The notes under the pieces were generated by a model that saw only the letters and a list, made by a program, of their open reading frames with translations, did no database searches and was not told where the DNA came from. Positions 295 to 19,014 of a stretch of DNA of 64,000 nucleotides are shown one piece after another. Position 1 is the first letter of the stretch; every line of letters starts with the position of its first letter. Location: NCBI GenBank assembly GCA_035695245.1, contig DASSEQ010000265.1, forward strand, positions 2,296 through 66,295, given 5' to 3'. The position numbers were made by a program, and so were the translations under genes. The DNA comes from Mycobacteriales bacterium. Its GTDB lineage: Bacteria > Actinomycetota > Actinomycetes > JAFAQI01.

Positions 295-318
295 CCCGCC
301 TCGGCCTAGGCTGATCAC

Positions 319-1677: not shown

Positions 1678-1752
1678 GTCGCTCGTTGTACGCGGCACGC
1701 CGATGAACTGTCCGAATTTTGGTCGCCCAACGTTCGAAGTCGGCCTTGGCCG

Positions 1753-2514
1753 TTAGCTGGCGGGGCGGCGCCGGGTTTTGCGGTCGGCGTCGGACAGCGC
1801 GGCGTCGAGGAGGGCGACGCTTTCGCGGTCCATGACCAGGGGGAAGGCGCGGTTGACCGCCAGGGCGGCGAGGGGACGCAGCCGCTTCGAGAGGTCCATC
1901 AGCCGGTCGACGTCCTGTTGCGTCAGCAGCGCGGGATCCGGACCGAGCGATGCTGACGTCGTCGTGGCGAAGTCGTGGGCGATCGCGGTCAGGTTCTCGA
2001 CAAGGGTCTCGGCGAGACGCAGGACCGCCGACAGGGGCAGGCCTGCGGAGACCAGTTCACGTGCGACGCCGAGCAGCGCCGGGCTCGGCAGCACGTAGCG
2101 CCGTCCGTGCCGTTGGAGCAGACCAATCTCGACCAAGTGGTCCGCGTGCGACACGCCGAAGTCCGAGCCGAAGGCAGTGCGCAGTTCGGTGAGGGTTACC
2201 GGCTCTGGCGACTCGTCACTCCACGGCATCGTGAGCACCTGCTCGACGCCCAGCACTGCGGAGAGGTCCTTGCCGGACTCCCAGGTGCTCAGCAGCTCGG
2301 CGATGTTGCCCAGCGAGTAGCCGCGGTCCAGCAGTCGGGTGATGAGGCGGAGGCGAGCCAGATGGGCTTCGGCGTACCAACCGACCCGGCCGACGAGGCG
2401 CGGCGGTGGGAGAAGGCCTCGCTCCTGATAGAGGCGGACGTTGCGCGCGGTCGTGCCGGCGGCGCGAGCCAGGTCATCGAGCCGGTAGTCCGTCACCTGA
2501 TGAGTCTCTCGCAC
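1753..2514 (-). CDS. MerR-family transcriptional regulator
   Basis: N-terminal HTH (YRLDDLARAAGTTARNVRLYQERGLL). It is divergent from the diiron oxygenase gene, with a dyad operator in the shared promoter. Confidence 0.85.
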   Translation of the reverse strand: MRETHQVTDYRLDDLARAAGTTARNVRLYQERGLLPPPRLVGRVGWYAEAHLARLRLITRLLDRGYSLGNIAELLSTWESGKDLSAVLGVEQVLTMPWSDESPEPVTLTELRTAFGSDFGVSHADHLVEIGLLQRHGRRYVLPSPALLGVARELVSAGLPLSAVLRLAETLVENLTAIAHDFATTTSASLGPDPALLTQQDVDRLMDLSKRLRPLAALAVNRAFPLVMDRESVALLDAALSDADRKTRRRPAS

Positions 2515-2526
2515 AGCCGGACAAAA

Positions 2527-2542
2527 TGTGACCTACGTCTCA
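2527..2542. promoter_or_regulatory. CRP/FNR-type site TGTGA-cctacg-TCTCA
   Basis: 9/10 match to the TGTGA-N6-TCACA consensus. It lies immediately upstream of the -35 box of the MerR/oxygenase divergent promoter. Confidence 0.45.
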
Positions 2543-2543
2543 G

Positions 2544-2574
2544 TTGACATTGTGCCATCGCAGATTGGCACAAT
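2544..2574 (+). promoter_or_regulatory. MerR-type promoter with operator dyad
   Basis: The -35 is TTGACA (2544-2549). A 19-nt spacer contains a perfect 9-bp inverted repeat ATTGTGCCA-N8-TGGCACAAT (2549-2557 / 2566-2574), and the -10-like hexamer is CACAAT (2569-2574). The ATG at 2581 is only 6 nt after the -10, implying a leaderless mRNA. Confidence 0.55.
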
Positions 2575-2580
2575 CCCCTT

Positions 2581-3510
2581 ATGACCGATCTGATGGCCCC
2601 CGTCTCTGTCGCCGAGGAGCTGGAGTGGCGGGACAGCCGGGAGAAGGTCGCGACAAGGCTGTTGAAGGCCACGGCGGACAAGCACTACGACCCCCGCGTG
2701 GACCTCGACTGGGACCCGCCTTTCCTGCCGGACAAGTTCTTCCTGTGCGAGGAGCACGTGTCGCTCTTCGGCACCCCGCTGTGGGACACGATGAGTCTCG
2801 AGCAGCGGATCGAGCTCTCGAAGCACGAGTCGGCCAGCTGGCTGTCGGCCGGCATCGCCTTCGAGATGCAGCTCGACGCGTTCCTGCTGCGCCACGCGTT
2901 CGTCCGCGACCCAACGAGTCAGCACGTGCGTTACGCCCTGACCGAGATCGAGGACGAGTGCCGGCACTCACTGATGTTCTCGATGATGCTCGAGAAGATG
3001 GGCACGCCGCTTTACTCGTTCCAGCCGAAGCTGCGGGCATTGATCTGGCGCAGCCAGTTCTTCGGCAGCGAGGTCATGGCGTTCATCGGCACGCTCATCG
3101 TCGAGGAGTTCCTCGACGCCGCGCAGCGTCAGATCATGCGCGACGACAACGTGCAACCCCTGGTGCGCGAGATGACGACCATCCACGTCGTCGAGGAAGC
3201 GCGGCACGTGTCCTACGCGCGCAGCGAGCTTGCACGCCAAGTCGAACGCATCGGGCCGAAGCGATTGGCTCTGATCCGGCAGCTGTCGGCATTCATGGCG
3301 TCGGGGATCTACAAGATGCTCGTCGATCCTGCCGTCTACGCCAATGTCGGAATCGATCGTGATCTCGCCCTCGAAGCGGTCAAGCAGAGCGAGCATCGCC
3401 GGCAGTTCCGTCGCGAGCTCACTGCGCGAACGTTCCGCAACTTCTCCGAGCTCGGACTCGTCGGGGGTCGCAGCGCGCAGATGTGGCGAGCCTGGGGCCA
3501 CGACTGCTGA
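2581..3510 (+). CDS. AurF-like diiron oxygenase (ferritin-like, p-aminobenzoate N-oxygenase family)
   Basis: 309 aa with paired carboxylate/His motifs (EDECRHS ... VEEARHV ... EEFLDAAQRQ) typical of diiron carboxylate N-oxygenase-like proteins. Confidence 0.7.
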   Translation: MTDLMAPVSVAEELEWRDSREKVATRLLKATADKHYDPRVDLDWDPPFLPDKFFLCEEHVSLFGTPLWDTMSLEQRIELSKHESASWLSAGIAFEMQLDAFLLRHAFVRDPTSQHVRYALTEIEDECRHSLMFSMMLEKMGTPLYSFQPKLRALIWRSQFFGSEVMAFIGTLIVEEFLDAAQRQIMRDDNVQPLVREMTTIHVVEEARHVSYARSELARQVERIGPKRLALIRQLSAFMASGIYKMLVDPAVYANVGIDRDLALEAVKQSEHRRQFRRELTARTFRNFSELGLVGGRSAQMWRAWGHDC

Positions 3511-3570
3511 ATCTGATCAATCCCTTGCGCTCGGCCGATGCGCCAATCTACAGTGGCGAATACAGGTCAA

Positions 3571-3586
3571 AGTGACCTAAGTCACA
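3571..3586. promoter_or_regulatory. CRP/FNR-type site aGTGA-cctaag-TCACA (perfect palindrome GTGACCTAAGTCAC)
   Basis: Matches TGTGA-N6-TCACA in 9/10 positions. It lies about 100 bp upstream of the secreted-protein gene and shares the core GTGACCTA-GTC with the site at 2527. Confidence 0.45.
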
Positions 3587-3688
3587 CCGAGGCAAAAGGG
3601 GGGCCGTCGGCGACCGCCTGAGTTCACGACCTGGACTCGCATCGCCGCGACATCCATCCGCACCTGCGGTTGGACCCATCGCTCGGCC

Positions 3689-5197
3689 GTGGCCGAAGCC
3701 GTAACCCGAGCCTTCGGTCGATCGTTACATCGTCAGCTGTCCGGTGGGCTCGGTCGCAGCGTCAGCGACGCTGCCAGAGGCGCAGGTGGTGGTCTGTTGC
3801 GGTTTCGATCCAAGGCACTCATGCTGCTCGCCGCAACATCGGCATCGGCCGTTGCCGCGGCAATCGCAGTGCCATCCGCGCAGGCCTCATCGAGCTTCAT
3901 CCCAGGCAGCGCCGGCGGAGTCGCACAGTCACTTCAGATCGCGCCGCGCACCGGTGGTTTCGCTTACACCATCTCGGTCGGCAACGCCATCGCGGACTTC
4001 CGGGGCACGCTGGCGCAAGCCGAGTCACAGGTGCTCGACCTCGGTCTCATCGGCACCGCACTCACAGCGCAGAGCTGTTCGGGTGGCAATCCACTGATCC
4101 AGTCCAGTCAGCTGCCGCAGCCGCTGATCGCCGAGTCTTCCGACGGCGACCACACCGAGTCGCACGACGAAGCCGGCAGCTCACAAAGCGGAGTGCTCGC
4201 CGCCGCCGGTCACGAACAAGTCACGGTCACGAAGACCCCGTCCTCCGCGGCGAGCTTCGACGGCGGCACGATCGGCTTCAACGGGCTGCTGACGGCCAGC
4301 GGCATGTCCACCGCGTCGACGTCAAAGTTGATCCCCGGCCAAGCTCGCCTTGCCACCGCTGATGCCTCGATCGGCCAGCTCAGCTTTCTCGGCGGCATCG
4401 TCGTCCTGAAGAACATGCACTGGAGCGCAAGCCTGCGCACGGGCACCAAGCCGTCGATGAGCGGCACCTTCACCATCGGCGACGCTGTCATCGCCGGGCA
4501 CGAGCAAGCCGTCGGGCCTGCGTCGGCCGGCAGCGTCCTCAATGCGGTGAACGCTCTGATCGCCGCATCCGGCCTGCACCTGACACCACCCACCATCAAG
4601 AAGAACACCACGGGTGGACTCACCATCTCGCCGTTGACGCTTGGCATCGACAACTCGCAGCTCGGTGCGACGGTCGTCAACCCGCTCAACAACGCAACCC
4701 AGCCCGAGCAGCAGCAGCTGGTGCAGATCCTGCTCGGCATCAACTGCCAGTTCGCAACGCCTCTGCTGCTCGAGGACATCGCGGTCGGAGCGGCCGACGG
4801 CACCGGCAGCGCGGACCTGCTCTTCGGCGGCGTCTCGGTCAGCTCCAACGCCGTCGCCTACAGCAACCCATTCGGCTCCGCACAGCTCGGCACGAGCTCC
4901 GGCCAGCCGCTCGGGGGAGTCAGTTCGCCCGCAACCGCCGCCGGGTCGGGCGGCGTCGGTTCGAGCCTTCCCGCGGGAGGCACCGTCGGTGCCGCCCCGG
5001 GAAACACGCCACAGCTCGCCGGGCAGGCGCAGGTCACCCAGTCCTGCGCGACCACCAGTCCGGCGCACTGGCCCGCGTGCAGCAACGGTGCCGCCCTCGC
5101 AGCCGGTCTTCTCGGCCTGGTTGCCGTCGTGGGGGTCGGCGGCGCGGACTTCTTCGTCATGCGCCGGCGGCGACACCTGCCTGAGCTGGATCTCTAA
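3689..5197 (+). CDS. secreted/membrane-anchored Ala/Ser/Gly/Thr-rich protein, unknown function
   Basis: A signal-peptide-like segment MLLAATSASAVAAAIAVPSAQA follows a possible alternative start at 3821. The protein is 502 aa of low-complexity S/A/G/T-rich sequence. A C-terminal hydrophobic helix is followed by RRRR, a membrane anchor. Confidence 0.55.
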   Translation: MAEAVTRAFGRSLHRQLSGGLGRSVSDAARGAGGGLLRFRSKALMLLAATSASAVAAAIAVPSAQASSSFIPGSAGGVAQSLQIAPRTGGFAYTISVGNAIADFRGTLAQAESQVLDLGLIGTALTAQSCSGGNPLIQSSQLPQPLIAESSDGDHTESHDEAGSSQSGVLAAAGHEQVTVTKTPSSAASFDGGTIGFNGLLTASGMSTASTSKLIPGQARLATADASIGQLSFLGGIVVLKNMHWSASLRTGTKPSMSGTFTIGDAVIAGHEQAVGPASAGSVLNAVNALIAASGLHLTPPTIKKNTTGGLTISPLTLGIDNSQLGATVVNPLNNATQPEQQQLVQILLGINCQFATPLLLEDIAVGAADGTGSADLLFGGVSVSSNAVAYSNPFGSAQLGTSSGQPLGGVSSPATAAGSGGVGSSLPAGGTVGAAPGNTPQLAGQAQVTQSCATTSPAHWPACSNGAALAAGLLGLVAVVGVGGADFFVMRRRRHLPELDL

Positions 5198-5223
5198 CCC
5201 GACTCGAGAGGAGACCGGCGCCG

Positions 5224-6855
5224 ATGGCGTTGGGCCCGACACAACGAACGTTCCTGCGTGGCTACGGCCCGCTCGCGTGCCTGTTGCTTGCCTTCGTTCT
5301 CATGGCCGCATTCGTGCCGACCAACGCGCGCGAGCGGGTCACGCTCGCGCAAGGTACGGCGGCCGCGCCCGGCACCGGCGTGACCGGCACTGTTCCTGGC
5401 AGTGGTGCGTCTGTCCCCGGTGCGGTCAAGGGTTCGACGACTGTGGCCGGCACGCAGGTGGCGAAGCCGGGGCAACTTCCGGCCCAGACCACGAAGTGCT
5501 CCGGCAAGCAGGTGCCCGGTGACCCCTACTCACCACCGTGCATCGAGTTCTCCGGCAGCAACGGTGGTTCCACGTCTCGTGGTGTCACGTCCTCCACCAT
5601 CACGGTTGCCTACCGCCAGACCAACGACCCCGGCTTCCAGCAGACCCTCGCGTCCATCGGCGGTGCGCAGTTCGCAGACACACCCGCGGACATCCGTCGC
5701 ACGATCCAAGGGTTGGCCGACTACTTCAACAAGCACTTCCAGTTCTACGGCCGCAAGCTCAACTTCGTCTTCTACAACGGGCAAGGCTCGCAGACCAACG
5801 AGCTTCTCGGCGGGGGTCAGGAACAAGCCAGCGCCGACGCACTGCATGTCTCCAGCGATATCAAAGCCTTCGCGGACATGAGCGCCGCAACCGAGCCGTA
5901 CGGCGACTCGTTGTCGCGCGACAAGGTGTTGAACTTCGGCGAGCCCTATCTCTCCGCCAAGTGGTTCAGCGACCGTTCGCCGTACGCATGGAGCCTCGCG
6001 AGCGACTGCACGTCGGTCAGCGAGGCGTCAGCCGACATCGCGGTCAAGCAGATGCTCGGGAAGAACGCCGTCTACGCCGGGGACACCAGCTTCCAGAAGA
6101 GCAAGCGCAAGCTGGCCATCCTCGCGCCGGACAACCCGTGGTACCAGGACTGCGTCAAGAACGCCGAGGCCATCTTCAAAGCCAACGGTTTCGGCAACCA
6201 GGAGTCCATTCCCTACCAGCTCGACTTGTCCACGTTGTCGAGTCAGGCCGCGAGCATCGTGTCGAAGCTGAAGGCCGACCACGTCACCACGGTGGTCTGC
6301 GGCTGCGATCCCATCTTCCCCGTTTATCTGACGCAGAAGGCAGACGAGCAGCAGTACAACCCGGAGTGGGCGGTCATCGGCGTCGCGCTGACCGACCAGG
6401 ACATCGTCGGTCAGCTGTTCGACCAGAAGGAATGGGCGCACGCCATCGGCGTCACTTACCAAGGCCCGACGATCCCTTATCAGGCAACGTTGGGATACGC
6501 CGCATACAAGAGTGTCCGCAGTGACGAACCGGCCCAGGCGGTCGACCTCATCTACGCACAGATGTACATGCTTGCCCTCGGCATCGACCTCGCCGGCCCG
6601 GACCTCACCCCCCAGACCTACCTCAAGGGCATGCAGAGCTACTCCGGCGGCACTGGCGAGTTCGGCACCTGGGGCTTCCCGCCCGGCGACTACACGCCGA
6701 CACGCGATGGTGCCGAGATCTATTGGGATCCCAACGCAACTTCCGCCTACAACGGCAAGCAAGGCGCATACGTGTTCGCCAGCGGCCGCTACCAGCCGGG
6801 CCATTGGCCGCAAGCGGCTGAGCCTCCGCACACGCCCTACCGGGCAGTGAGGTGA
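5224..6855 (+). CDS. ABC transporter substrate-binding protein (Liv/amide-type periplasmic binding fold)
   Basis: Strong RBS GAGAGGAG, an N-terminal signal/TM segment, and a linker followed by a type I periplasmic binding domain. Its stop overlaps the start of the permease gene (GTGA). Confidence 0.75.
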   Translation: MALGPTQRTFLRGYGPLACLLLAFVLMAAFVPTNARERVTLAQGTAAAPGTGVTGTVPGSGASVPGAVKGSTTVAGTQVAKPGQLPAQTTKCSGKQVPGDPYSPPCIEFSGSNGGSTSRGVTSSTITVAYRQTNDPGFQQTLASIGGAQFADTPADIRRTIQGLADYFNKHFQFYGRKLNFVFYNGQGSQTNELLGGGQEQASADALHVSSDIKAFADMSAATEPYGDSLSRDKVLNFGEPYLSAKWFSDRSPYAWSLASDCTSVSEASADIAVKQMLGKNAVYAGDTSFQKSKRKLAILAPDNPWYQDCVKNAEAIFKANGFGNQESIPYQLDLSTLSSQAASIVSKLKADHVTTVVCGCDPIFPVYLTQKADEQQYNPEWAVIGVALTDQDIVGQLFDQKEWAHAIGVTYQGPTIPYQATLGYAAYKSVRSDEPAQAVDLIYAQMYMLALGIDLAGPDLTPQTYLKGMQSYSGGTGEFGTWGFPPGDYTPTRDGAEIYWDPNATSAYNGKQGAYVFASGRYQPGHWPQAAEPPHTPYRAVR

Positions 6856-9800
6856 ACCGCGCGGTCGAGTTGCTCCGACGGTCCCGCCCGCTCACCATCG
6901 GCGGCGCGATCGTGGTGGCGCTCCTCGTCGCGATGCTCGCCTCGCCCGGCCGGGTCCCGTTCGGCATCGCCCTGCAAGGCGCGTTGTACGGCACGACGAC
7001 CGGCCTCCTCGGGATCGGTCTCGTTCTGACCTACCGTTCGGACCGGATCGTCAACTTCTCGTACGGCGCAATGGGCGGCGTCGGCGCGTCCGTGGGCGTG
7101 CTGCTCTATCTGGGCAAGCACTGGAACTACCTGATCTGCATCTTCATCGGACTCGCGGTCGGCGGTCTCGTCGGGGCCGGCACCGAGATGTTCGTCATCC
7201 GCCGCTTTGCTCGTGCGCCGCGGCTGATCCTGACCGTCGCGACAATCGGTTTGGCGCAGGTGCTGGGCGGCATCCAGTTGCTGCTGCCGAAGTGGTTGTC
7301 CGCACCCGCGCTTGTCGGTGGCTTCAAGACGCCGCTCTCCGGACCACATCTCAACGTCGGCCCGGTGCTCTTCACCGGCGACGCGCTGCTTGTCGTCGCC
7401 GTCGTGCCGGTCGCGATCCTGTTGCTGGCCTACTTCCTGCTGCGCACCGATGCCGGCGTTGCCATCCGCGCGATCGCGGACAACCGCGACCGCGCAATGC
7501 TCGTCGGCGTCCCGATCCGACGACTGGCCACTGTCGTATGGATCGTGGCCGGGGTGCTCGCGGCGCTCACCACCTTGCTGTCCGCCCCGACGGCCGGCCT
7601 CACCATCAACGCGGCCGCCGGACCGACCCTGCTGCTTCCCGCGCTTGCCGCGGCCGTCATTGCCGGCATGGAGTCGCTCCCCATCGCGTTCGTCGCCGGC
7701 ACCGGCCTCGGCGTCCTCGATGCGGTTGTCCGCTGGAACTTCACCAAGCAGTCCGTGTCGACCGTCGCCTTCCTGATCGTCATCCTGTTGGCACTGCTCG
7801 GCCAGCGCGAGTCCGGTCGCCGCGAGAATGCCGAGGACTCCTCGCTGTCAACGGCAGCGGCCGCGGTCACCCAGATCCCCAGCGCGCTGCGCCGCTTGCC
7901 CGAGGTGGTCGCCGGCCGCGTGATCGGCCTCACCCTTCTGGGGATTCTCGTCATCGCCGTTCCCGCCGCCGCCAGCGAGAGCACGGTGCGCATCTTCAGC
8001 GTCGGCGTCATCTACGCGATCGTCGCGGTCTCCCTGGTCGTGCTGTCAGGTTGGGCCGGGGAGATCAGCCTCGGGCAATACGCACTCGTCGGCATCGGCG
8101 GCGTTGTCGCCGGCAACATGATCACGCACTGGAACGTCGACTTCTTCGTCTGCCTCGTCTGCGCCGCGACGGCGGGAGCCGTCCTCGCCGTACTCGTCGG
8201 GCTTCCTGCTCTCCGGATTCGTGGGTTGTTCCTGGCCGTCACGACTCTCGCCCTCGCCGTGGCCGCAGACGCCTTCTTCTTCAACCCGACCAACTTCGCG
8301 TCCTTGATCCCGTCGTCGATCGACCGGCCGATCTTGTGGAAGCGCTTCGACCTGACCAACGAGCGGGCGCTCTACTACCTGTGCCTCGCCATGCTCGTCT
8401 TGACCATCGTCGTCGTTCGCGGACTTCGCCAGGCTCGTGCCGGTCGCGTCATGCTCGCAACCCGGGACAACCCTCGGGCTGCTGCAGCGATGGCGGTGCC
8501 GACGACGCGCATCAAACTGCTCTGTTTCGTCATCTCCGGGGCGATCGCCGGCATGGCCGGCGGCTTGCACGCACTCATTCTTCAGTCGATCGGATTCGGC
8601 ACCTACCAACCGTCCGAAAGCCTGCTGGTGTTCTCGATGGTTGTCATCGGGGGACTCGGGTCGATCGGGGGCGCCCTGCTCGGCGTGCTCGCCATCGAAT
8701 GCGCTGTGCACCTGTTCCCGCAGTACCAGCTGGTCATCACCGGCACCGGTCTGCTGTTGGTCCTGCTCCTGTTGCCGGGTGGCCTCGCATCGGCGCTCAC
8801 TGCCCTGCGCGACCGGCTACTGACGCTGGTCGCGCGGCGCCACGGCATCGACCTGACGCCGACCGCGGCAGGAGCGACCGACGTCGACGCGGCCGTCGAG
8901 CCCGTATCGGTCGAGCACCTTGCAGACAGCGACACGCTGTTCCACTGCCGAGGGGTGGAGGTGAAGTACGGCGCAATGCAGGTGCTGTTCGGTGCGGACC
9001 TGGAGGTCCGAGAGGGCGAGATCGTGGCCTTGCTGGGCACCAACGGCGCCGGCAAGTCGACTCTTCTCAAGGCTATCGCGGGCCTCGTCCCGCCGTCGGG
9101 CGGGCGCGTCGTCTTCGCCGGTCAGGACGTGACGTCGGCTTCAACCCAGAGGAAGGCGACCACGGGCCTGGCCATGATGCCGGCAAAGTCGGTCTTCCCG
9201 TCGTTGACGGTGGACGAAAACCTGCGGATCGCGGCCTGGCTGGTGCGTGGCGACGCCGCCGCGGCCGAAGCAGCACGCGACGAAGTGCGCGACTTGTTCC
9301 CGGTCCTGCGCGAGCGACGCGGCCAGGTGGCCGGGAACCTTTCCGGTGGCGAGCAGCAGATGCTCTCGCTCGCGATGGCACTCATGACCAGGCCCCGACT
9401 GCTGCTGATCGACGAGCTGTCGCTTGGGCTGGCGCCGACGATCGTCGGACGCCTGCTCGGCGTCGTGCGCCAGCTGGTCGAACGCGGCGTGACCGTCGTC
9501 ATCGTCGAGCAATCGGTCAACGTTGCCCTCGAGCTCGCCGAGCGCGCCGTCTTCCTGGAGAAGGGGCAGGTGCGGTTCAGCGGCCGCACCGCTGATCTGC
9601 TCGCCCGGCCCGACGTCCTGCGCTCAGTGTTCATCGCGGGAGCGGCGACGGTCGAGCAGCCGAAGAAGCCGGCCCGCGGCCGCGGCCGCGCTCGCACGGC
9701 GCCAGCGCAACGCACCGCGCTCGAGATCGCGCAGACCGAACCGCAGCCGATCGTCCTCGAGTGCCAGTCGGTCGTGAAGGACTTCGGCGGCGTTCGCGCC

Positions 9801-10550
9801 CTCGATCATGTCGACCTCGCTCTGCACAAGCACGAGATCCTCGGTCTCATCGGTCACAACGGCGCCGGGAAGACGACGCTGTTCGACGTCATCTGCGGGT
9901 TTCTGCCGAGCGACCGCGGACGGGTGTTGTTCGGCGGCGCACCGATGGATGCCTTCCCGCCGTCAGATCGCGCCTTCCTCGGGCTCGGCCGTTCGTTCCA
10001 GGAAGCACGGCTCTACCCCTCGTTGACGGTCGAAGAGACGATCGCCGTCGCCTTCGAGCGACACCTGTTCTCACGCGACGTCGTCGCTGCCGGTCTTCGG
10101 CTGCCTGCCTCGACGCTGTCCGAGATGGCCGTCGCACAACGAGTCGGCGAGCTCATCGAGCAGCTCGGACTCGGCCGCTACGCCGAGTCGCTCGTCGGCC
10201 AGCTCTCCACCGGCACGCGACGGATCGTCGAGCTCGGGTGTGTCCTCGCCCAGGATCCCGCGGTGCTGCTTCTCGACGAGCCGACGGGAGGCGTCGCGCA
10301 GAAGGAGACCGAAGCGCTGGGCCCGCTGCTGCGTCAGGTGCGGGAGGAGACCGGCTGCGCCATGCTCGTCATCGAGCACGACATGCCGCTGCTGACGTCA
10401 CTGTGCGACCGACTGGTCGCCCTCGAGCTCGGTCAGGTCATCGCCGAAGGGGCACCGGCGGCTGTGCTCGAACACCCGCGGGTGATCGAGTCCTACCTCG
10501 GCACCGACGCAGCGGCAACCAACAGGTCCGGGGCGCTCGCGAACACCTAG
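6852..10550 (+). CDS. fused branched-chain-amino-acid-type ABC importer: permease(LivH-like)-permease(LivM-like)-ATPase(LivF-like)-ATPase(LivG-like)
   Basis: A single 1232-aa ORF. Two polytopic permease domains are followed by two ABC ATPase domains, with Walker A GTNGAGKST and GHNGAGKTT and signatures LSGGEQQML and LSTGTRRIV. Confidence 0.85.
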   Translation: MNRAVELLRRSRPLTIGGAIVVALLVAMLASPGRVPFGIALQGALYGTTTGLLGIGLVLTYRSDRIVNFSYGAMGGVGASVGVLLYLGKHWNYLICIFIGLAVGGLVGAGTEMFVIRRFARAPRLILTVATIGLAQVLGGIQLLLPKWLSAPALVGGFKTPLSGPHLNVGPVLFTGDALLVVAVVPVAILLLAYFLLRTDAGVAIRAIADNRDRAMLVGVPIRRLATVVWIVAGVLAALTTLLSAPTAGLTINAAAGPTLLLPALAAAVIAGMESLPIAFVAGTGLGVLDAVVRWNFTKQSVSTVAFLIVILLALLGQRESGRRENAEDSSLSTAAAAVTQIPSALRRLPEVVAGRVIGLTLLGILVIAVPAAASESTVRIFSVGVIYAIVAVSLVVLSGWAGEISLGQYALVGIGGVVAGNMITHWNVDFFVCLVCAATAGAVLAVLVGLPALRIRGLFLAVTTLALAVAADAFFFNPTNFASLIPSSIDRPILWKRFDLTNERALYYLCLAMLVLTIVVVRGLRQARAGRVMLATRDNPRAAAAMAVPTTRIKLLCFVISGAIAGMAGGLHALILQSIGFGTYQPSESLLVFSMVVIGGLGSIGGALLGVLAIECAVHLFPQYQLVITGTGLLLVLLLLPGGLASALTALRDRLLTLVARRHGIDLTPTAAGATDVDAAVEPVSVEHLADSDTLFHCRGVEVKYGAMQVLFGADLEVREGEIVALLGTNGAGKSTLLKAIAGLVPPSGGRVVFAGQDVTSASTQRKATTGLAMMPAKSVFPSLTVDENLRIAAWLVRGDAAAAEAARDEVRDLFPVLRERRGQVAGNLSGGEQQMLSLAMALMTRPRLLLIDELSLGLAPTIVGRLLGVVRQLVERGVTVVIVEQSVNVALELAERAVFLEKGQVRFSGRTADLLARPDVLRSVFIAGAATVEQPKKPARGRGRARTAPAQRTALEIAQTEPQPIVLECQSVVKDFGGVRALDHVDLALHKHEILGLIGHNGAGKTTLFDVICGFLPSDRGRVLFGGAPMDAFPPSDRAFLGLGRSFQEARLYPSLTVEETIAVAFERHLFSRDVVAAGLRLPASTLSEMAVAQRVGELIEQLGLGRYAESLVGQLSTGTRRIVELGCVLAQDPAVLLLDEPTGGVAQKETEALGPLLRQVREETGCAMLVIEHDMPLLTSLCDRLVALELGQVIAEGAPAAVLEHPRVIESYLGTDAAATNRSGALANT

Positions 10551-10559
10551 GGTTACGTC

Positions 10560-11996
10560 GTGTCTCACCCGGGCTCGCAGCGCGCTCTACGACAACCGCG
10601 GGTGCGCACACCGCGACCGTTGCTCGGACACCGGCTGCCTTCGGGCCGAGGAGCGACGGAGCAACCCAACGCCGCCGGCGACGCCGAAACCCCACTAACG
10701 GCAACCTTCTGGCTTCTTGTCATCGCGACCGGGATCGCGACAGGGTTGCTCGGCGCATTCATGATGTGGCTGCTGCACGGGGTGCAACATCTTGCCTTTG
10801 GTTACTCCTCCGGCACCTTCGGTCCGGGGGTCCGTCACGCCGCACCGGGGCGCCGGCTGCTCGCGCTCGTCCTTGCCGGCGCATTTGCGGGCGTCGCGTG
10901 GTTCTGGCTGCGACGGCTGACGGCGGCGGAGAGCTCAGACCTCGACGACCAGATCTGGACGGGCGACGGCACGCTGTCGTTTCGCCGGTCGCTGGGCACG
11001 TCGGTGCTGTCGGAGGTCGTCGTGGGCGCGGGTGCCTCGCTCGGGCGCGAGGCCGCCCCGAAGTTGATGGGCGGCGCTGCTGCCAGTGCGCTCGCGCGGT
11101 GGCGCGGACTGAGCGTCTCGCAGCGGCGGCTGCTGGTGGCGTGCGGCGGTGGCGCTGGAATGGGCGCGGTCTACAACGTGCCTCTCGGCGGCGCGCTGAT
11201 CACGGCGGAGCTTCTCTACGGAAGCTTGGCCCTCCCGGTCATCCTGCCCGCGCTGGCCTGTTCGTGGATCGCCACCGCGGTGTCGTGGGTCTATCTGCCG
11301 ACGGCTGCGACGTACGCCGATCTGCCGTCGTACCCGTTACGTGCGACGGTTGTCGTCTTTGCGCTTGTCGTCGGGCCGATCATCGGTCTGCTCTCCGTCG
11401 GGTACATCCGGCTGATCGGCTGGGTGTCGCACTACCGTGCCTCGGGCCGGATCTTGCTCGTCGCGCCGCTGGCGGCATTCTTCGTGCTCGGACTGGTCGC
11501 TCTTGCCTACCCGCAGGTGCTGGGCAACGGAAAGGACCTCGCGCACACGGCATTCCTGTCGCACGGTGGCGAGACTTTTGCGCTGGTGCTCGTCTTGTTC
11601 GCGTTGAAGCCGCTCGTGACCGCTATGTGTCTCGGCAGCGGTGTCACGGGTGGTCTGTTCACCCCGACGATGAGCACCGGAGCGATCCTCGGCGTCGTGC
11701 TCGGCAAGATCTGGGTGCAGATGTGGCCCGGCAGCCCGGTCGGCGCGTTCGCCATCGTCGCCGCCGCAGCAGCAATCGGGGCGGCGATGCAAACGCCGCT
11801 CTCCGCCTTGGCGTTGATGATCGAGCTGACCCGCACGACGGACACGCTCATTGTCCCGATGATCGCGGCGACGGTGTTGGCGACGATGGTGGCGCGCTAT
11901 CTCGATGGCTACTCGATCTACTCCTCGCGCCTGCCGGCCCCGACCGCACCGGAGCGACTGCACGGCGACTCCGAGGCGGGCGGCGAGCGCCTATGA
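10560..11996 (+). CDS. ClC-family voltage-gated chloride channel / H+-Cl- antiporter
   Basis: ClC selectivity motifs GREAAP and GGLFTP, about 10 TM helices. The start codon is uncertain (GTG at 10560). Confidence 0.8.
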   Translation: MSHPGSQRALRQPRVRTPRPLLGHRLPSGRGATEQPNAAGDAETPLTATFWLLVIATGIATGLLGAFMMWLLHGVQHLAFGYSSGTFGPGVRHAAPGRRLLALVLAGAFAGVAWFWLRRLTAAESSDLDDQIWTGDGTLSFRRSLGTSVLSEVVVGAGASLGREAAPKLMGGAAASALARWRGLSVSQRRLLVACGGGAGMGAVYNVPLGGALITAELLYGSLALPVILPALACSWIATAVSWVYLPTAATYADLPSYPLRATVVVFALVVGPIIGLLSVGYIRLIGWVSHYRASGRILLVAPLAAFFVLGLVALAYPQVLGNGKDLAHTAFLSHGGETFALVLVLFALKPLVTAMCLGSGVTGGLFTPTMSTGAILGVVLGKIWVQMWPGSPVGAFAIVAAAAAIGAAMQTPLSALALMIELTRTTDTLIVPMIAATVLATMVARYLDGYSIYSSRLPAPTAPERLHGDSEAGGERL

Positions 11997-11999
11997 CGG

Positions 12000-13496
12000 C
12001 TACCTGGCGCTGACCAGTCGCGTCGGTGCCGCTCGGCCGCGCAGCACCGTCTCGCCGGCGGACTCCCAATGCGCGCACTCAGCAGGATCTGCGGTGTCGA
12101 GCACAGCGGCGCTCACGAGCACGCGTTCCGGCCGCGTCTTTGCCAGCTCGCTGAGCCGGGCTGCTTCGTTCACCGGATCGCCAATGACCGTGAACTCGAA
12201 ACGCTCGCGGGTGCCGACATTGCCGGCGACGACGTCCCCGGATGAGACGCCGATCGCTGCGGACAGGCCGTTGATGTCGGCAAGCCGGTCTCGCAGCAAC
12301 CTGGCGGCCAGCAGCGCGCACGTGTCGGCGTCCGCGCGAGGCACAGGAGCGCCGAAGACACAGAGCGCGGCATCACCCTCGAACTTGTTGACGATCCCGC
12401 CGGTGCGGTCGACGACATCGACGACGACCGCGAAGAACTCGTTGAGCGCCGAGACGACGGCGGTCGGCGGCAGCGTTGTTGCGAGCGCAGTCGAGCCGAT
12501 CACATCGACAAAGAGAACAGCGGCATGCACCTGATCGCCGCCGAGCCTGATGCCGCGTTCCAGCGCGTGCCGGGCAACATCCTCACCAACCTGACGGCCA
12601 AACAGGTCGCGCAGCCGGCGCCGCTCGCGCAGCCCTTCGACCATCGCGTTGAACCCGGCCTGCAACTGCCCGATCTGGCTGCCGTCGTATACCGGCACGG
12701 CGATGTCGAGCCGACCCGCCTCCACATCGGCGAGGGCGGCGGTCACTGACTCAACCGGATCCGCGACCGAGCGAGCGGCTACGCCCATCGCCGCAGCTCC
12801 CGAGAGCAATGCAACGACGCCGAGGAACGCAAGGGCGGCCGGAGAGATCGGCTTGTCGCCATGATCGAAGGCCATCAGGATGATGCCGATGATCGGCACC
12901 GCCGATCCAATCAGCCATGACAGCAACAGTCTCGACTTGACGCCGGGTATGTAGGGGTCGGTGGGCACACCCTCGGCGAACGCAAGGGCGTTGAGTGGAC
13001 GCAGAATGCGTTCGGCCAGCAGGTAGGTGAGACCGCTCGTGGTAATCGCGCCGAGCAGGATCGTCGACGCGACATCGGAGACGAAGCGCGAGCCGAATCT
13101 CGTGTTCAGCGGCAGGAACAACGCCTCCGAACCCATCCACATCGTGAAGTTGATGACTGTCTGCCGCAGTGGATGGCGCACCACGTAGGTGCGCAGCGAG
13201 GTGCTCAGCGGCTCGCCTTCGACAACCCAACGATGGATGGGTGAGAAGGCCCGGGCACCCCAGGTGCAGCCCATCAGCAACGAGAAGAACATGTACGCGA
13301 TCAAAGCGACGACGTTGGCGGTGTCCTGCCGCTCGTTGGCCGGTAAGAGCAAGCCGAGAAACAGGAACACAACAGCCGCGCCGACGATGTTGGCAGCACC
13401 CATCGAAGCACCGAAGCGCAACTCGATCCGTGCCATCAACGCTTTGCGCTCGGCGGACACGACCGCGCCGGCGATGCCGTGCGCTGCCGCGGTCAT
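12000..13496 (-). CDS. membrane-anchored class III adenylate cyclase with HAMP domain
   Basis: Six N-terminal TM helices, a HAMP-like linker (AVPVYDGSQIGQLQAGFNAMVEGLR) and a cyclase catalytic domain (LFVDVIGSTALA ... KFEGDAALCVFGAP). Confidence 0.85.
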   Translation of the reverse strand: MTAAAHGIAGAVVSAERKALMARIELRFGASMGAANIVGAAVVFLFLGLLLPANERQDTANVVALIAYMFFSLLMGCTWGARAFSPIHRWVVEGEPLSTSLRTYVVRHPLRQTVINFTMWMGSEALFLPLNTRFGSRFVSDVASTILLGAITTSGLTYLLAERILRPLNALAFAEGVPTDPYIPGVKSRLLLSWLIGSAVPIIGIILMAFDHGDKPISPAALAFLGVVALLSGAAAMGVAARSVADPVESVTAALADVEAGRLDIAVPVYDGSQIGQLQAGFNAMVEGLRERRRLRDLFGRQVGEDVARHALERGIRLGGDQVHAAVLFVDVIGSTALATTLPPTAVVSALNEFFAVVVDVVDRTGGIVNKFEGDAALCVFGAPVPRADADTCALLAARLLRDRLADINGLSAAIGVSSGDVVAGNVGTRERFEFTVIGDPVNEAARLSELAKTRPERVLVSAAVLDTADPAECAHWESAGETVLRGRAAPTRLVSAR

Positions 13497-13540
13497 GTTG
13501 GCAGTGTGACAGGCGTCATCTCACGGCGCTGTGGGCGAAA

Positions 13541-14605
13541 TCACAAGAGCGTCGCCGTATGGCGTCCGGCAGCTGCCGCAGCGAGGAAGTACGCCGGATC
13601 GTCACCGAGACCGCGGCCCATCGTTGTCAGCGCCACCGGCGTCTCGGACAGTCGGTCATGCAGACCGTCGACATCCACCTCGACGAGGCGGTGCCGCGCC
13701 GCCAACGGTGCGCAGGCCGCCCGCACGTCGGCGCCGAACTGTCCGTCGAGCACGGGTACGACGACATCCGCCGGCAACAACGCGACGCGTCCGAGCGCAG
13801 TGAGCGTGTGATGTGAGACGCCTCGATGACGCGGGCGGTCATCGACCGCAGAAACTCGCAACGCAGCGACCGGGCGACCACCTACCGTCGCGGTTGCGTT
13901 GATCGCTTCTCCGGTGGCAACGCCGCTGAAGCCCCAGCGCGTGCCGGTCCCGAGATTGCCGGGACCTTGCGTCACCACCACGACGTCCGCGCCTAGCACG
14001 AGCCGCGCGGCGAGCAGGCCGGAATGCAACGTGACCGCCTCGAGGTCGCCGCCGAATGATTGCCCGACGGTGACCGTCGCCGTCAACCAACCGGCTTCGC
14101 GCAGCGGTGGGACGGTGCGGGAGAACCACAGTGGCAGCGCACCACCATCACTCATCAGGTAGACGACGCGAGCTTGCGGCGCGCGCTCGCGCAACCCGGC
14201 GAGCACTGCTGGCAACGCTGAATGCAAGTCCGCGACGACGACCGGCATGCCGCCGACGTCGTCAGCATCGCGGAGCAGCGAGTGATGTGCAGAGCCTTGT
14301 TCGTCGGCGGCGAGCACGGTCGCTTGCATTGGCGAGTAGCGCGCCTTGACGACATGACCAGGCTCGTCGGCATCCACCGGTAGCCGGTCGGGCAGCGCGA
14401 CCACGAGCGCGTAACCACCGGTGCCGAGACCGAGAGTCAAAGCCGTCACGTTGAGCAGGACGCGGTCGCCGACCTGCGGTGCGCCGACCAGACGCGGATA
14501 TGCAAGCGCCGGGACATCGCCCTCGCCAGTGGTCGCAACCAGCTCGACAACGTCGGCGTTCGCCGTAACGACCGTCGCGACCCGAGCGTCGCGCCAGCGA
14601 ATCAC
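13541..14605 (-). CDS. DUF3866-like conserved actinobacterial protein
   Basis: 354 aa, no recognisable catalytic motif. The family assignment comes from memory of overall composition, so it is tentative. Confidence 0.5.
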   Translation of the reverse strand: MIRWRDARVATVVTANADVVELVATTGEGDVPALAYPRLVGAPQVGDRVLLNVTALTLGLGTGGYALVVALPDRLPVDADEPGHVVKARYSPMQATVLAADEQGSAHHSLLRDADDVGGMPVVVADLHSALPAVLAGLRERAPQARVVYLMSDGGALPLWFSRTVPPLREAGWLTATVTVGQSFGGDLEAVTLHSGLLAARLVLGADVVVVTQGPGNLGTGTRWGFSGVATGEAINATATVGGRPVAALRVSAVDDRPRHRGVSHHTLTALGRVALLPADVVVPVLDGQFGADVRAACAPLAARHRLVEVDVDGLHDRLSETPVALTTMGRGLGDDPAYFLAAAAAGRHTATLL

Positions 14606-14740
14606 GTCCGCACCCTATGCGCGGCAGCACGACTCGTGGTGGATCGCATGGCCGCGTCGAGGGGGCGCGGAAGCGACGTCCCCGCGCCATTGCTTCCGCT
14701 GACGGGTCGTTTGGCTTGGCGAGCCGGCCCGTCGGTCGGG

Positions 14741-16360
14741 TCAGTAGATGGCGCGATGCGCCGCGCGCAGTGCGGCCCGTCGTACCGGGCCGGCAATGCC
14801 CGCGTTGCGCAACGCCGACGTGGCGGCGATGGCCCCGGGGCCGCCGTGCACGCCGCCGCCGGGATGGGCGGAAGCCGAGGCGAGGTAGAGCCGCCCGACC
14901 GGGAGCTCGGGGCGGCCCAACCCGGGGACGGGCCGCCAAAACAGCTGCTGGTGGACGGCCGCGCTCCCGCCGTTGACGGCGCCGAGGTGCAGGTCGAGGT
15001 CTGCGGCCTGCAGATCGAGTGGCCCGAAGACGTGGCGCGCGATGACCTTGCTCCGAAAACCGGGCGCGTGCCGCTCGACCTCGGACTCGAGCCGCTCGAC
15101 CACCGCCTGGACCTCACGCTCATCCCAGCGGCCGGTGATGCCGTCGTTGCCGGCATCGGCCCGCACCCGCTGCGGCAGGTGCGTGTAGCCCCAAGCCGAC
15201 TCGGTGCCGGCCGGCGATCGGGTGGCATCCGCCGTGGTCATCTGGCCGAGCACGACGTACGGGCGGGAGGGCACCGCCCCCATCGCGAGCTGGTGCGCGT
15301 AGCTGCTCAGCTCGTCGATGCTGCCACCGAGGTGCACGGTGCCGGCAAGCCCGCATTCGGGGTCGCGCCACGGGATCGGCGCGGACAGTGCCCAGTCGAC
15401 CTTGAGTGTCGCGTTGTCCCACTGGAAGCGGCGAACATCGTCGACGATCCGCGCCGGCAGGTGCTCAGGTCCGACGAGGTCGCGGAGCAGCTGTGGTGCG
15501 TCGACAGCTGCGAGCACCGCCCGGGCCGCTCCCACCGCGGTGCCGTCCGCAGTGCGCACCCCTACCGCCCGGCCACCGCGCACGTCGATGCGGGCGACAC
15601 GCACACCACAGTGCAGATCACCGCCTCGGGCTCGAAGCCGGTCAACGAGAGCCTCGGTCAGCTTGCCGGCACCACCGACAGGGACGGGAAACCCGATCGT
15701 CTGGCCGAGCATGGACAACAGCCAGCCGAAGACCGCACTCCCGGCCGCATCCGGCCCGAGGTCGGTGTGAAAGGCGTTGCCGGCGACCAGCGAGGTCGCG
15801 CCGACACCGGTGAAGCACTCCTCGCCCCACCGCCGAAGCGGCTGCACGAAGAACCGGGCGAACCTCAACAGCTCGGCCAGGCCCAGCTGGCGAACCAGCC
15901 CTACTGAAGGGGCAACCGGAGGGAAGGGGCGGAAGAGTGCGTTGATGAAAGGGTCACGAATGCTGTCGAACCGATCGACAAGGTCGATCCACGCATCACC
16001 ATCGCCCGCTCCGAACTTCTCCAGGTTGGCGGCAGTGGCGGACGGGTCGCGATGCAGGAGGGCGGTCCTCTCGGCGTCGACGGGGTGAGCAACCACCGTC
16101 GGTGCTTGCGTCCAGCGGAGTCCCCAGCGCTCCAGATCCAGTGCGGAGATGACGGGGGACGCCACAGCGAGGGGATAGACCGCGCTGAAGAGGTCGTTGA
16201 CGAACCCGGGGGCGGTGACCTCAGCCGACTTGACCGCGCCGCCGGGGCTGTCCGCCGCCTCCAGGACGGTGACCGACCAGCCGGCGTCGGCGAGCATGTT
16301 TGCCGCGACGAGCCCATTGACGCCCGCGCCCACGACAACTGCGTCCGTCACCTTGTGCAC
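14741..16360 (-). CDS. phytoene-desaturase-family FAD/NAD(P)-dependent oxidoreductase (CrtI-like)
   Basis: N-terminal dinucleotide-binding motif VVVGAGVNGLVAANMLADAGWSVTVLEA, 539 aa. Confidence 0.8.
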   Translation of the reverse strand: MHKVTDAVVVGAGVNGLVAANMLADAGWSVTVLEAADSPGGAVKSAEVTAPGFVNDLFSAVYPLAVASPVISALDLERWGLRWTQAPTVVAHPVDAERTALLHRDPSATAANLEKFGAGDGDAWIDLVDRFDSIRDPFINALFRPFPPVAPSVGLVRQLGLAELLRFARFFVQPLRRWGEECFTGVGATSLVAGNAFHTDLGPDAAGSAVFGWLLSMLGQTIGFPVPVGGAGKLTEALVDRLRARGGDLHCGVRVARIDVRGGRAVGVRTADGTAVGAARAVLAAVDAPQLLRDLVGPEHLPARIVDDVRRFQWDNATLKVDWALSAPIPWRDPECGLAGTVHLGGSIDELSSYAHQLAMGAVPSRPYVVLGQMTTADATRSPAGTESAWGYTHLPQRVRADAGNDGITGRWDEREVQAVVERLESEVERHAPGFRSKVIARHVFGPLDLQAADLDLHLGAVNGGSAAVHQQLFWRPVPGLGRPELPVGRLYLASASAHPGGGVHGGPGAIAATSALRNAGIAGPVRRAALRAAHRAIY

Positions 16361-16413
16361 CTCCCCGCGTCGCCGCCACCGGAACCCGCCTTCCGCCGGT
16401 AGCGTGACGCACC

Positions 16414-17364
16414 GTGTCGTCCCGGCGGACCGAGCGGTTGCTCAACCTTGTCATCTGCCTGCTGCACACCCGGTCGTTCCTGACTGCCGAGCGCATCCGC
16501 GAGCTCGTCCCCGGCTACGACGATGCGCCGTCGGAGGATGCCTTCAAGCGCGCCTTCGAGCGCGACAAGGAAGATCTTCGCGACCTCGGCATCCCGCTGG
16601 AGACCGGCACCAACAGCGCGTTCGACGATGAGCCCGGCTACCGCATCGCCAGGCGCGACTACGCGCTGCCTGAGGTTCGCCTCGAGGCGGACGAGGCCGC
16701 CGCGGTCGGGCTGGCTGCGCGGATGTGGACGTCGGCGACCATGGGCGCGGCCGCGACCCGGGCGCTTCGCAAGCTCGAAGCGGCCGGCGTCGAGCTGGCG
16801 CCGCTGCCGGAGGGCCTGCAACCCCGGCTGGAGTCGACCGATGCCGCGTTTCCCGACCTGGCCGAGGCTGTGCACGACGGACGGGTGGTCACCTTCGACT
16901 ACCGCACCAGCGCCGGTGGCGACGAGTCGCGTCGCACCGTCGAGCCGTGGGGGCTCGCTTGGTGGCACGGGCGGTGGTACCTCGTCGGCCACGACCGCGA
17001 CCGAGACGCCACCCGCGTGTTCCGGCTCTCGCGCATCACCACAGCACCCGTTCCGAGCGGCCGCGCCGGCGCGGCGCACCGTCCTGAAGGCGTGGACCTC
17101 ACCGCGATCGTCGCCTCCTACGACTCGGCCGCTCCGGCGCAGAACGCCCGACTGCGAGTGCGGTCCGGCCGCGGGCTCGGCCTGCGCCGCCGCGCGGCGT
17201 CCGTCACAACCGGGGACGATGACTGGGACATCGTCGAGCTGCCTGCCCCGGACGTGTCCCGGCTCGTCGACCAGGTGCTTCCTTACGGGGCCGACGTCGT
17301 GGTCGAGCACCCACCCGAGGCGGTCGCGAGCGTCGTACGACGGCTGAAGGCGCTGGCCGGATGA
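16414..17364 (+). CDS. pafB: proteasome accessory factor PafB (HTH-WYL regulator)
   Basis: N-terminus MSSRRTERLLNLVICLLHTRSFLTAERIRELVPGY is the PafB HTH; a WYL domain follows. The gene overlaps pafC by 4 nt. Confidence 0.9.
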   Translation: MSSRRTERLLNLVICLLHTRSFLTAERIRELVPGYDDAPSEDAFKRAFERDKEDLRDLGIPLETGTNSAFDDEPGYRIARRDYALPEVRLEADEAAAVGLAARMWTSATMGAAATRALRKLEAAGVELAPLPEGLQPRLESTDAAFPDLAEAVHDGRVVTFDYRTSAGGDESRRTVEPWGLAWWHGRWYLVGHDRDRDATRVFRLSRITTAPVPSGRAGAAHRPEGVDLTAIVASYDSAAPAQNARLRVRSGRGLGLRRRAASVTTGDDDWDIVELPAPDVSRLVDQVLPYGADVVVEHPPEAVASVVRRLKALAG

Positions 17365-18761: not shown

Positions 18762-18814
18762 CCCGGACGGTCGACAACCGTCCACCGGCAAGCGCCCGCA
18801 ACTACGCTGGTGCG

Positions 18815-18991: not shown

Positions 18992-19014
18992 GCTCCGCGG
19001 CGTAGGATTTCGGT

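Follow-up and report, generated by a model that had tools for sequence, protein, structure and literature searches.

Nine genes between pafA and pafBC in an uncultured actinomycete: a probable composite in a variable slot of the Pup-proteasome locus

How did nine genes come to lie between pafA, which encodes the Pup ligase, and the pafBC pair in the Pup-proteasome locus of an uncultured actinomycete? The locus stands near the left end of the 64,000-nucleotide stretch of contig DASSEQ010000265.1 analysed here (hereafter, the window). A first-pass annotation of this DNA took a contiguous pafA-pafB-pafC operon as its baseline and read the 14.7 kb in between as a single inserted cargo unit responsive to cyclic AMP (cAMP). 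Our results point to a different history: the 14.7-kb interval is probably a composite in a naturally variable slot of the Pup-proteasome locus, rather than recent cargo splitting an operon. The analysis separates an old transporter module from an ancestral gene trio and supplies a MerR operator, three CRP-like sites and a −10 element for pafBC. Overall, this is ordinary gene-order variation, a matter of genome architecture.

We retrieved 80 reference-genome loci with PafA, 75 of which show both pafA and pafB. In all 75 the two genes are separated, by 1,428 to 9,094 bp (median 1,766 bp), and they are never contiguous. The genes filling the slot vary by lineage: FKBP isomerase genes, which usually occupy the gap in Streptomyces and Streptosporangiales; sets of UDP-sugar dehydrogenase, epimerase and glycosyltransferase genes; or a penicillin amidase gene together with one for an NHL-repeat protein. 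A shared pafABC operon is a mycobacterial feature that is not valid for all Actinobacteria, and in known loci pafBC lies close 3′ of pafA, sometimes outside its operon (review, PMC8223512). The window is alike in this respect and shares the prcB-prcA-pafA ... pafB-pafC-tatA-tatC-helY order of known Pup-proteasome loci; pafB does not follow directly after pafA on the same strand, as it would in a mycobacterial-type operon. The source organism, an uncultured metagenome-assembled genome (MAG) labelled 'Mycobacteriales bacterium', is not a Mycobacterium; its PafA comes closest to that of a Frankiales MAG (95%) and to Streptosporangiales sequences (88-90%). The binding protein, protein X and the cyclase described below are each 100% identical to a protein on a 77-kb contig of this MAG, whereas exact-sequence look-ups of the window's PafA and DUF3866 proteins gave no match. 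With all comparators gapped and the organism not a Mycobacterium, the contiguous baseline of the first-pass annotation is the wrong template here, as the mycobacterial operon is for other actinomycetes. Outside mycobacteria, the pafA-pafBC interval is a slot filled differently in each lineage, in which a large gap is expected and is no sign of recent horizontal transfer.

The gap in the window is nevertheless the largest we encountered: at 14,736 bp, it surpasses every one of the 75 comparator Pup loci and holds both a transporter module and a trio of cyclase, DUF3866 and CrtI-like genes. Its length favours the view that the entire 14.7 kb arrived by horizontal transfer as a cAMP-responsive cargo island, but this view also requires a contiguous pafA-pafB-pafC to be split, and no comparator has one. 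We regard it as extremely unlikely, also in light of the evidence on gene order, composition and regulatory sites given below. The nine genes themselves, including that of the binding protein, were correctly recognised by the first-pass annotation, and the open reading frame (ORF) listing and family scans confirm all of them at the following coordinates, given here together with their flanks.

1-294, plus strand: 3′ end of prcA (proteasome alpha subunit), left flank; its frame-1 translation matches the C-terminus of PrcA from locus L081, where the gene order is prcB-prcA-pafA
319-1677, plus strand: pafA (Pup ligase), left anchor; TIGR03686 759 bits (cutoff 551), PF03136 E 1e-167
1753-2514, minus strand: MerR-family regulator, 253 aa; PF13411 (MerR_1 HTH) E 9e-20, residues 10-76
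2581-3510, plus strand: AurF-family ferritin-like diiron oxygenase, 309 aa; PF11583 E 6e-82, full profile
3797-5197 (longest ORF from 3689), plus strand: protein X, Ala/Gly/Ser-rich, without Pfam or NCBIfam match
5224-6855, plus strand: membrane-anchored Peripla_BP_6 substrate-binding protein; PF13458 E 8e-13
6852-10550, plus strand: fused LivH-LivM-LivF-LivG-type ABC permease/ATPase, 1232 aa; two BPD_transp_2 and two ABC_tran domains, BCA_ABC_TP_C
10560-11996, plus strand: ClC-type chloride channel/antiporter; PF00654 (Voltage_CLC) E 7e-67
12000-13496, minus strand: membrane adenylate cyclase (multiple transmembrane segments, HAMP, class III); PF00672, PF00211
13541-14605, minus strand: DUF3866 protein; PF12982 E 9e-125
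14741-16360, minus strand: CrtI/CrtO-like FAD oxidoreductase, divergent from pafB; Amino_oxidase, DAO, NAD_binding_8
16414-17364, plus strand: pafB, right anchor; WYL and WCX domains
17361-18323, plus strand: pafC, right anchor; WYL, WCX and HTH_PafC domains

The two right-hand anchors overlap by 4 nt (17361-17364) and are translationally coupled. Downstream of pafBC follow a 110-aa ORF, tatA, tatC, a gene for a DAGK-like kinase and helY, and the same holds for the relatives.

Comparison with related loci, which were retrieved via homologues of the binding protein, the fused transporter and the cyclase and are designated below by L numbers, divides the interval into two parts of different history. 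The cyclase, DUF3866 and CrtI-like genes at its right end (12000-16360, 4.4 kb) are ancestral residents between pafA and pafBC, because they occupy this place in relatives that lack the transporter module. The order is pafA-DUF202-cyclase-DUF3866-CrtI-pafBC in L170, pafA-...-cyclase-DUF3866-pafBC in L171 and L172, pafA-LuxR-type regulator-cyclase-DUF3866 in L168, pafA-cyclase-DUF3866 in L001, with 37 nt between pafA and the cyclase gene, and pafA-DUF3866-CrtI-pafBC in L032. In every related locus, module-free ones included, the cyclase orthologue adjoins DUF3866; CrtI-like orthologues are found at the same place in L032, L090, L167, L169 and L170, and a DUF202 gene stands beside the cyclase gene in L167, L170 and L172. 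With its right third ancestral and present without the transporter, the block is not the single cargo unit that had been proposed.

The most constant element of this trio is DUF3866, whose gene is divergent from pafB, at a distance of 36-575 bp, in 26 of the 75 reference genomes and in all family-level relatives. In these 26 loci, the variable stretch is the one between pafA and DUF3866, spanning 17-8,021 bp. Such a tight and conserved divergent pairing is what might be expected if the genes had been placed here for a function together with the Pup-proteasome or PafBC, for example as DNA-damage genes regulated by PafBC or as suppliers or sensors of pupylation signals. We consider this very improbable for the interval as a whole: the conserved pairing is limited to DUF3866 and does not extend to the module, the module is also found in places with no paf gene nearby, and the slot fillers differ entirely between lineages. 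Furthermore, the RecA-NDp (PafBC) motif TGTCRGTG-N8-TANNNT has no match in the whole window when at most one mismatch is allowed, and there is hence no sign that PafBC controls the block. DUF3866 itself could, via its divergent pairing with pafBC, belong to a PafBC-controlled stress response, and the pairing, conserved and unstudied, offers a modest lead. A sequence search of the PDB with the DUF3866 protein gave no match at E <= 1e-3, and literature searches on DUF3866 yielded nothing relevant; the one paper found to name the domain does so only in tabulating essential genes of C. difficile. For the CrtI-like protein, the same type of search found phytoene dehydrogenase 4dgk (E 5e-14), and its CrtO and crtI_fam NCBIfam scores are below cutoff.

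The separation of pafA and pafBC is also reflected in the sequence directly ahead of pafB, where one element stands out.

16400-16405, plus strand: −10 element TAGCGT (within gGTAGCGT), 8 nt before the pafB GTG, conserved in relatives

The octamer gGTAGCGT lies 8 nt before the pafB start in the window, L090 and L024, and 25-60 nt before pafB, ahead of the Shine-Dalgarno sequence, in ten Streptosporangiales loci. Given this conservation, pafBC appears to own a separate predicted promoter. In this Frankia-like actinomycete family, pafA and pafBC would then form separate transcription units, with an essentially leaderless pafBC transcript. Promoters were inferred from conservation because the sigma-70 consensus is ill-suited to the promoters of high-GC actinomycetes; a promoter scan of positions 1-19000 with that consensus returned no sigma-70 promoter. 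Terminators in the same region are at chance level (8 versus 7.4 expected).

The left 10.2 kb (1753-11996), with the genes for MerR, the AurF-like protein, X, the substrate-binding protein and the fused LivHMFG transporter, plus ClC, is, in contrast, a portable, lineage-specific module. L087, whose PafA is 99% identical, carries MerR, AurF, X, binding protein, Liv, ClC and cyclase, at 79-91% identity, in the same slot and order. The module also stands at the slot in L081/L082 with L089/L090 and in the near-identical L169, with an extra merR and without ClC, and in L167, with an extra merR, a DUF202 gene and an SRPBCC gene, again without ClC; L088 shows X-binding protein-Liv-ClC-cyclase-DUF3866. 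Apart from the window, four lineages thus have the module at this slot. It is lacking there in L168, L170, L171, L172, L001 and L032, and the right 4.4 kb is present in nearly all loci, with or without the module. In L083, MerR-AurF-X-binding protein-Liv lies off the paf locus, beside a BNR/sortilin protein and a mechanosensitive channel; in L086, X-binding protein-Liv stands alone beside unrelated genes, and in L084 binding protein-Liv is found at a contig start with unrelated neighbours. Since the module is missing from the outgroup slots and sits as a unit elsewhere in L083, it was probably acquired or relocated. The proposal of an insertion between pafA and pafBC thus probably survives for the MerR-to-Liv/ClC block, which is lineage-specific and also found elsewhere, but no operon was split and the right third was already in place. 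Absence of the left sub-block from several relatives and its presence elsewhere in L083 would also suit a cargo island, whereas the ancestral trio and the close relatives speak against one: L087, L081 with L090, L167 and L169 keep the same genes in the same order, so that at close range the arrangement is shared synteny.

Within the module, some positions are more fluid than others. Orthologues of merR are divergent from aurF in L087, L081, L083 and L167. ClC, at the right edge, behaves as a variable passenger, its gene being limited to the window, L087 and L088 and lacking in L089/L090, L167 and L169. Some relatives carry a second merR between aurF and X (L081, 7812-8576; L167, 18555-19286), where the window has a 286-nt spacer with the second of the CRP-like sites described below.

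If the module was acquired, how long ago? The codon-usage deviation that a recent insertion might show, and for which the first-pass annotation had proposed a check, is not seen. Karlin B is 0.217 for the block genes versus 0.213 for the other genes (Mann-Whitney U test, p = 0.94), the GC content at third codon positions (GC3) is 0.83 versus 0.84, and the pooled block B of 0.095 falls within the control range of 0.061-0.101. The tetranucleotide profile is host-like as well, except that the segment 2501-7500 is slightly high (0.194 versus 0.10-0.16). The most deviant codon usage in the block belongs to DUF3866 (Karlin B 0.377, GC3 0.749), and yet no gene of the interval is more conserved in its synteny. 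No integrase, transposase or relaxase domain was found in the nine block proteins, no tRNA or tmRNA gene stands at the block (the only tRNA of the window is at 53975-54049), and repeats spanning the block borders are limited to short, chance-like matches of 70-80%; all this argues against a cargo island. The only tyrosine recombinase of the window (62771-63841, minus strand; Phage_integrase and SAM-like N-terminal domain) is located beside scpA/cmk/der at a distance of 46 kb; it is unrelated to the block and probably serves as an XerD-type housekeeping enzyme. Module proteins of L167 diverge in step with the flanks (77-84% versus 74-88%). Based on host-like composition, flank-like divergence and the lack of mobility signs, the module acquisition can be judged as old; that is, the module is predicted to be an ameliorated acquisition rather than recent cargo.

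Host-like composition would also fit a history in which the entire interval is ancestral, the module having been lost independently in L168, L170, L171, L172, L001 and L032 and copied or translocated in L083. To place these lineages, a neighbour-joining tree was built from the cyclase and DUF3866 (717 gap-free columns). Module bearers and L168 form an inner group, with L170, L171, L172 and L001 outside it; L168 is sister to L090/L169 with 80% bootstrap support, which clearly indicates that the module was lost or replaced here within the group of its bearers. Although this case and the weak deep nodes of the cyclase and DUF3866 tree (20-46%) leave some room for an ancestral module, it would need at least 4-5 independent clean deletions against one gain and one loss. 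Moreover, L170 has only 4 nt between pafA and the adjacent DUF202 gene, with no module remnant, and the module or its X-binding protein-Liv core occurs at unrelated loci (L083, L084 and L086), which points to mobility. An ancestral module is thus unlikely, if less so than the two alternatives discussed above. One gain followed by one loss or replacement would be the most parsimonious history, with weak tree support.

Nucleotide identities along the block reveal a further layer. Relative to L087, identity stands at 80-87% as far as ~10.5 kb and drops to 70-77% further right; relative to L088, it rises from 73-82% left of ~10 kb to 84-90% right of it. This switch points to a putative recombination junction at ~10000-10500, where the fused transporter gene ends and ClC starts.

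We then ask whether the block is tied to cAMP, as had been suggested from two CRP-type sites. Two known systems serve for comparison, namely the CRP/GlxR regulons of mycobacteria and corynebacteria and the HAMP-type class III cyclases, such as Rv3645 and Rv1318c-1320c. With at most one mismatch to TGTGA-N6-TCACA, there are three sites, starting at 2527, 3571 and 13530, all of them intergenic.

2527-2542: CRP/GlxR-like palindrome 1, TGTGACCTACGTCTCA, in the merR-aurF intergenic region, one mismatch
3571-3586: CRP/GlxR-like palindrome 2, AGTGACCTAAGTCACA, between aurF and X, one mismatch
13530-13545, minus strand: CRP/GlxR-like palindrome 3, TGTGATTTCGCCCACA, ahead of the cyclase gene, one mismatch

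Shuffled sequences have a mean of 0.95 such sites, and 4 of 100 shuffles reach three. Like members of CRP/GlxR regulons, the sites are TGTGA-N6-TCACA palindromes, two of the three with the central TA of the GlxR consensus; unlike in these regulons, the density of sites at two mismatches is not above chance, with 10 found in the window and 15.5 expected. Palindrome 1 is identical in L087, is replaced by TGTGACGAGTGTGACA in L167 and is lacking in the off-locus L083. Palindrome 2 is also identical in L087, with TGTGATCTAGGTCACT in L081 and AGTGACACAGGTCACA in L167 at the orthologous place. Thus, the two module sites are kept in L087, L167 and L081 and not in L083. The centre of palindrome 3 is ~41.5 nt upstream of the cyclase ATG, which is preceded by an extended −10 element, TGTCACACT (hexamer 13503-13508); if the cyclase transcript is leaderless, the geometry would be class-II-like. 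This palindrome is kept in ten lineages, module-free ones included, and stands at ~−42 in L088, L087, L090, L168, L169, L172, L001 and L170. In total, orthologous CRP-like sites occur in up to ten related loci, and in the block of each relative they are the only ones with at most one mismatch and lie at orthologous positions. The encoded cyclase resembles HAMP-type class III enzymes in having a multi-transmembrane region, a HAMP domain and a cyclase domain.

The CRP-type sites of the first-pass annotation are therefore real and conserved, although they number three rather than two. Its cAMP-responsive module holds in part: the CRP-like sites are conserved and two of them lie in the module, whereas the site in the best position is that of the ancestral cyclase gene. 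Three such sites and a cyclase gene would favour a cargo island; against this, the best-placed site is also present in lineages free of the module. We conclude that responsiveness of the module to cAMP has moderate, indirect support from these sites.

A second, more local control is suggested by the 66-bp spacer between merR and aurF, in which elements of a MerR-type promoter can be read.

2544-2574, plus strand: MerR-type promoter, with −35 TTGACA (2544-2549), a 19-bp spacer and −10 CACAAT (2569-2574)

A perfect dyad, TTGTGCCA-N8-TGGCACAA with 8-bp arms (2550-2573), is located inside the promoter spacer, and the aurF ATG at 2581 begins 7 nt past the −10 element, which implies that the predicted aurF transcript is leaderless or near-leaderless. 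The whole element is kept in L087, L081, L082, L167 and the off-locus L083. MerR-family activators such as MerR, CueR, ZntR and SoxR act on promoters with spacers of 19-20 bp, and as in MerR and CueR systems, the window combines a divergent regulator gene, a 19-bp spacer between −35 and −10 and a dyad within it; the N-terminal HTH matches CueR and MerR structures (E 3e-7 to 1e-5). Taken together, the merR-aurF spacer carries what is, by sequence, the signature of a MerR-activated promoter. Unlike the classic MerR, CueR, ZntR and SoxR, the protein of the window is 253 aa long, lacks cysteine and has a C-terminal half of ~170 aa that matches no family in Pfam, and all NCBIfam equivalogs score far below cutoff. 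The lack of cysteine excludes thiol-based sensing of metals or redox state, and the signal sensed is likely to be an organic ligand. In L083, 10 nt separate aurF from X, which would tie the oxygenase and the transporter into one operon there.

What might such a module do? The transporter shares with HAAT importers (LivJ/LivHMGF, UrtABCDE) a Peripla_BP_6 binding protein, two BPD_transp_2 domains, two nucleotide-binding domains (NBDs) and a BCA_ABC_TP_C tail. In contrast to classical Liv and Urt systems, its four domains are fused in a single 1232-aa chain, and it has a presumably obligatory fifth partner, X. Full four-domain fusions recur in L083, L084, L086, L091, L093, L097-L099 and L111, and two-gene versions are found in L102, L115, L128 and L141. 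The start of the transporter gene overlaps the stop codon of the binding-protein gene by 4 nt. The NBDs resemble UrtE/LivF and UrtD/LivG most; a urea transporter was considered and rejected, as the UrtE score of 298 bits is inflated by two NBDs in one chain and the binding protein is unlike UrtA. The binding protein has an N-terminal hydrophobic anchor (residues 13-31) and a low-complexity linker of ~100 aa. It matches no NCBIfam equivalog (LivJ/K, UrtA and others) and no PDB relative at E <= 1e-3, and its 1,315 homologues at E <= 1e-20 are distributed in Actinomycetota, Acidimicrobiales and Dormibacterota MAGs.

The start of X is probably TTG 3797, giving 466 aa, because its homologues (459-472 aa) begin there and a Shine-Dalgarno-like AGGTGGTGG precedes it. 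The protein shows a signal peptide-like N-terminal segment, a Gly/Pro-rich linker, a C-terminal transmembrane helix and an RRRR tail, with A, G and S making up 41% of the residues. The family to which an exhaustive profile search assigns it numbers 655 clusters at 50% identity, of which 303 match at E <= 1e-30. An AlphaFold2 model built from 103 sequences (pLDDT 83, pTM 0.72) consists of long antiparallel strands, two long helices, a disordered linker and a transmembrane helix, with a beta-rich ectodomain; Foldseek comparison of the model with the PDB found no counterpart, only porin-like noise (TM <= 0.18 query-normalised, root-mean-square deviation ~20 Å). A first model from 24 sequences (pLDDT 60) had been discarded, its structural matches being meaningless. 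X lies directly upstream of the binding-protein gene in 11 of 11 loci in which the binding protein is at least 40% identical to that of the window, an arrangement shown by none of 16 loci from more distant subfamilies; members of the X family are found in L083, L086, L098, L102, L104, L108, L115 and L124-L126. This uncharacterised family, strictly linked to one subfamily of Liv-type importers, is a modest lead of its own.

The oxygenase shares with the N-oxygenases AurF and CmlI the full-length PF11583 domain and both iron-ligand ExxH motifs, EDECRH and EEARH, which align to a VlmB homologue and AurF. AurF itself is barely detectable with it (phmmer E 0.19), and a sequence search of the PDB gave no match at E <= 1e-3. 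Unlike AurF and CmlI, it is encoded outside a biosynthetic cluster, with genes for a MerR regulator and an importer as neighbours, and arylamine N-oxygenation is a putative activity here. In L128, L129 and L147, related transporters have distant AurF-like genes (26-28% identity) within a few kb; a literature search for AurF with MerR and an ABC transporter found nothing relevant. One may tentatively ask whether X, the binding protein and the fused LivHMFG, in many cases joined by an AurF-family oxygenase and a MerR without cysteine, make up an uptake-and-oxidation system that is undescribed as yet but widespread in soil Actinomycetota and neighbouring phyla, a possibility that we hold as rather doubtful. 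If so, X would be a new obligatory extracytoplasmic accessory subunit, membrane-anchored, beta-rich and without a Pfam model or solved fold, which would capture or process the substrate for the Liv-type ABC importer.

Returning to the composite interval, which we favour, its history and operation may be pictured as follows. The three opposite-strand genes for the HAMP cyclase, DUF3866 and CrtI-like protein would have resided between pafA and pafBC for long, and the five-gene module (1753-10550) would have landed between pafA and the cyclase gene in the ancestor of a sub-clade, to be inherited vertically thereafter. Later recombination with small gains and losses presumably brought ClC in the window and DUF202 or a second merR in other lineages. 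The cysteine-free MerR probably binds the dyad in the 19-bp spacer promoter and, sensing an organic ligand, would activate aurF and then X-sbp-livHMFG-clc by read-through or from a second promoter. The cell may thereby import a small nitrogen-containing or aromatic compound, with X as the presumed obligatory extracytoplasmic partner of this binding-protein subfamily, and the diiron enzyme would oxidise the compound or its product. The three TGTGA-N6-TCACA sites are probable targets of a CRP-family regulator: the one at ~−41.5 of the cyclase gene could provide cAMP-dependent feedback on cAMP synthesis, and the two module sites may tie the module to the same cAMP signal.

Several observations weigh against parts of this account. 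The node uniting the module-bearing lineages has a bootstrap value of only 46%, so one gain and several losses are not firmly separable, and the switch from an L087-like left to an L088-like right means that inheritance was not purely vertical. The close comparators are all metagenome contigs or MAGs, some of them short, and L088 stops short of pafA. As for regulation, no CRP gene or cyclic nucleotide monophosphate-binding regulator is present among the scanned genes of the 64-kb window, and the 286-nt gap between aurF and X has no recognisable promoter.

The remainder of the window is a core actinobacterial chromosome, with genes for a 5′-3′ exonuclease and an M24 peptidase, lnt, gcvP with a glycine riboswitch, der, cmk and scpA. 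An Rfam scan of the whole window gave no match inside the block. Outside it, the glycine riboswitch (68 bits; 45581-45675, minus strand) lies upstream of gcvP (42599-45454, minus strand), followed by a MerR/bifunctional-nuclease/MerR/DUF881 stretch, and a c-di-GMP-II-GAG riboswitch match (30082-30210, plus strand; 46.7 bits, gathering score 40) is situated between genes for a DUF1697 protein and an AsnC-type regulator. The tRNA mentioned above, tRNA-Pro(GGG), on the minus strand, overlaps the 5′ end of the longest ORF for a CDP-alcohol phosphatidyltransferase (53353-54033, minus strand), whose true start must therefore be further downstream. Finally, the window encodes the alpha subunit of D-lysine 5,6-aminomutase (34385-35953, plus strand; E 3e-242), and 5′ of this gene are two ORFs without a family match (31839-33260 and 33264-34388).

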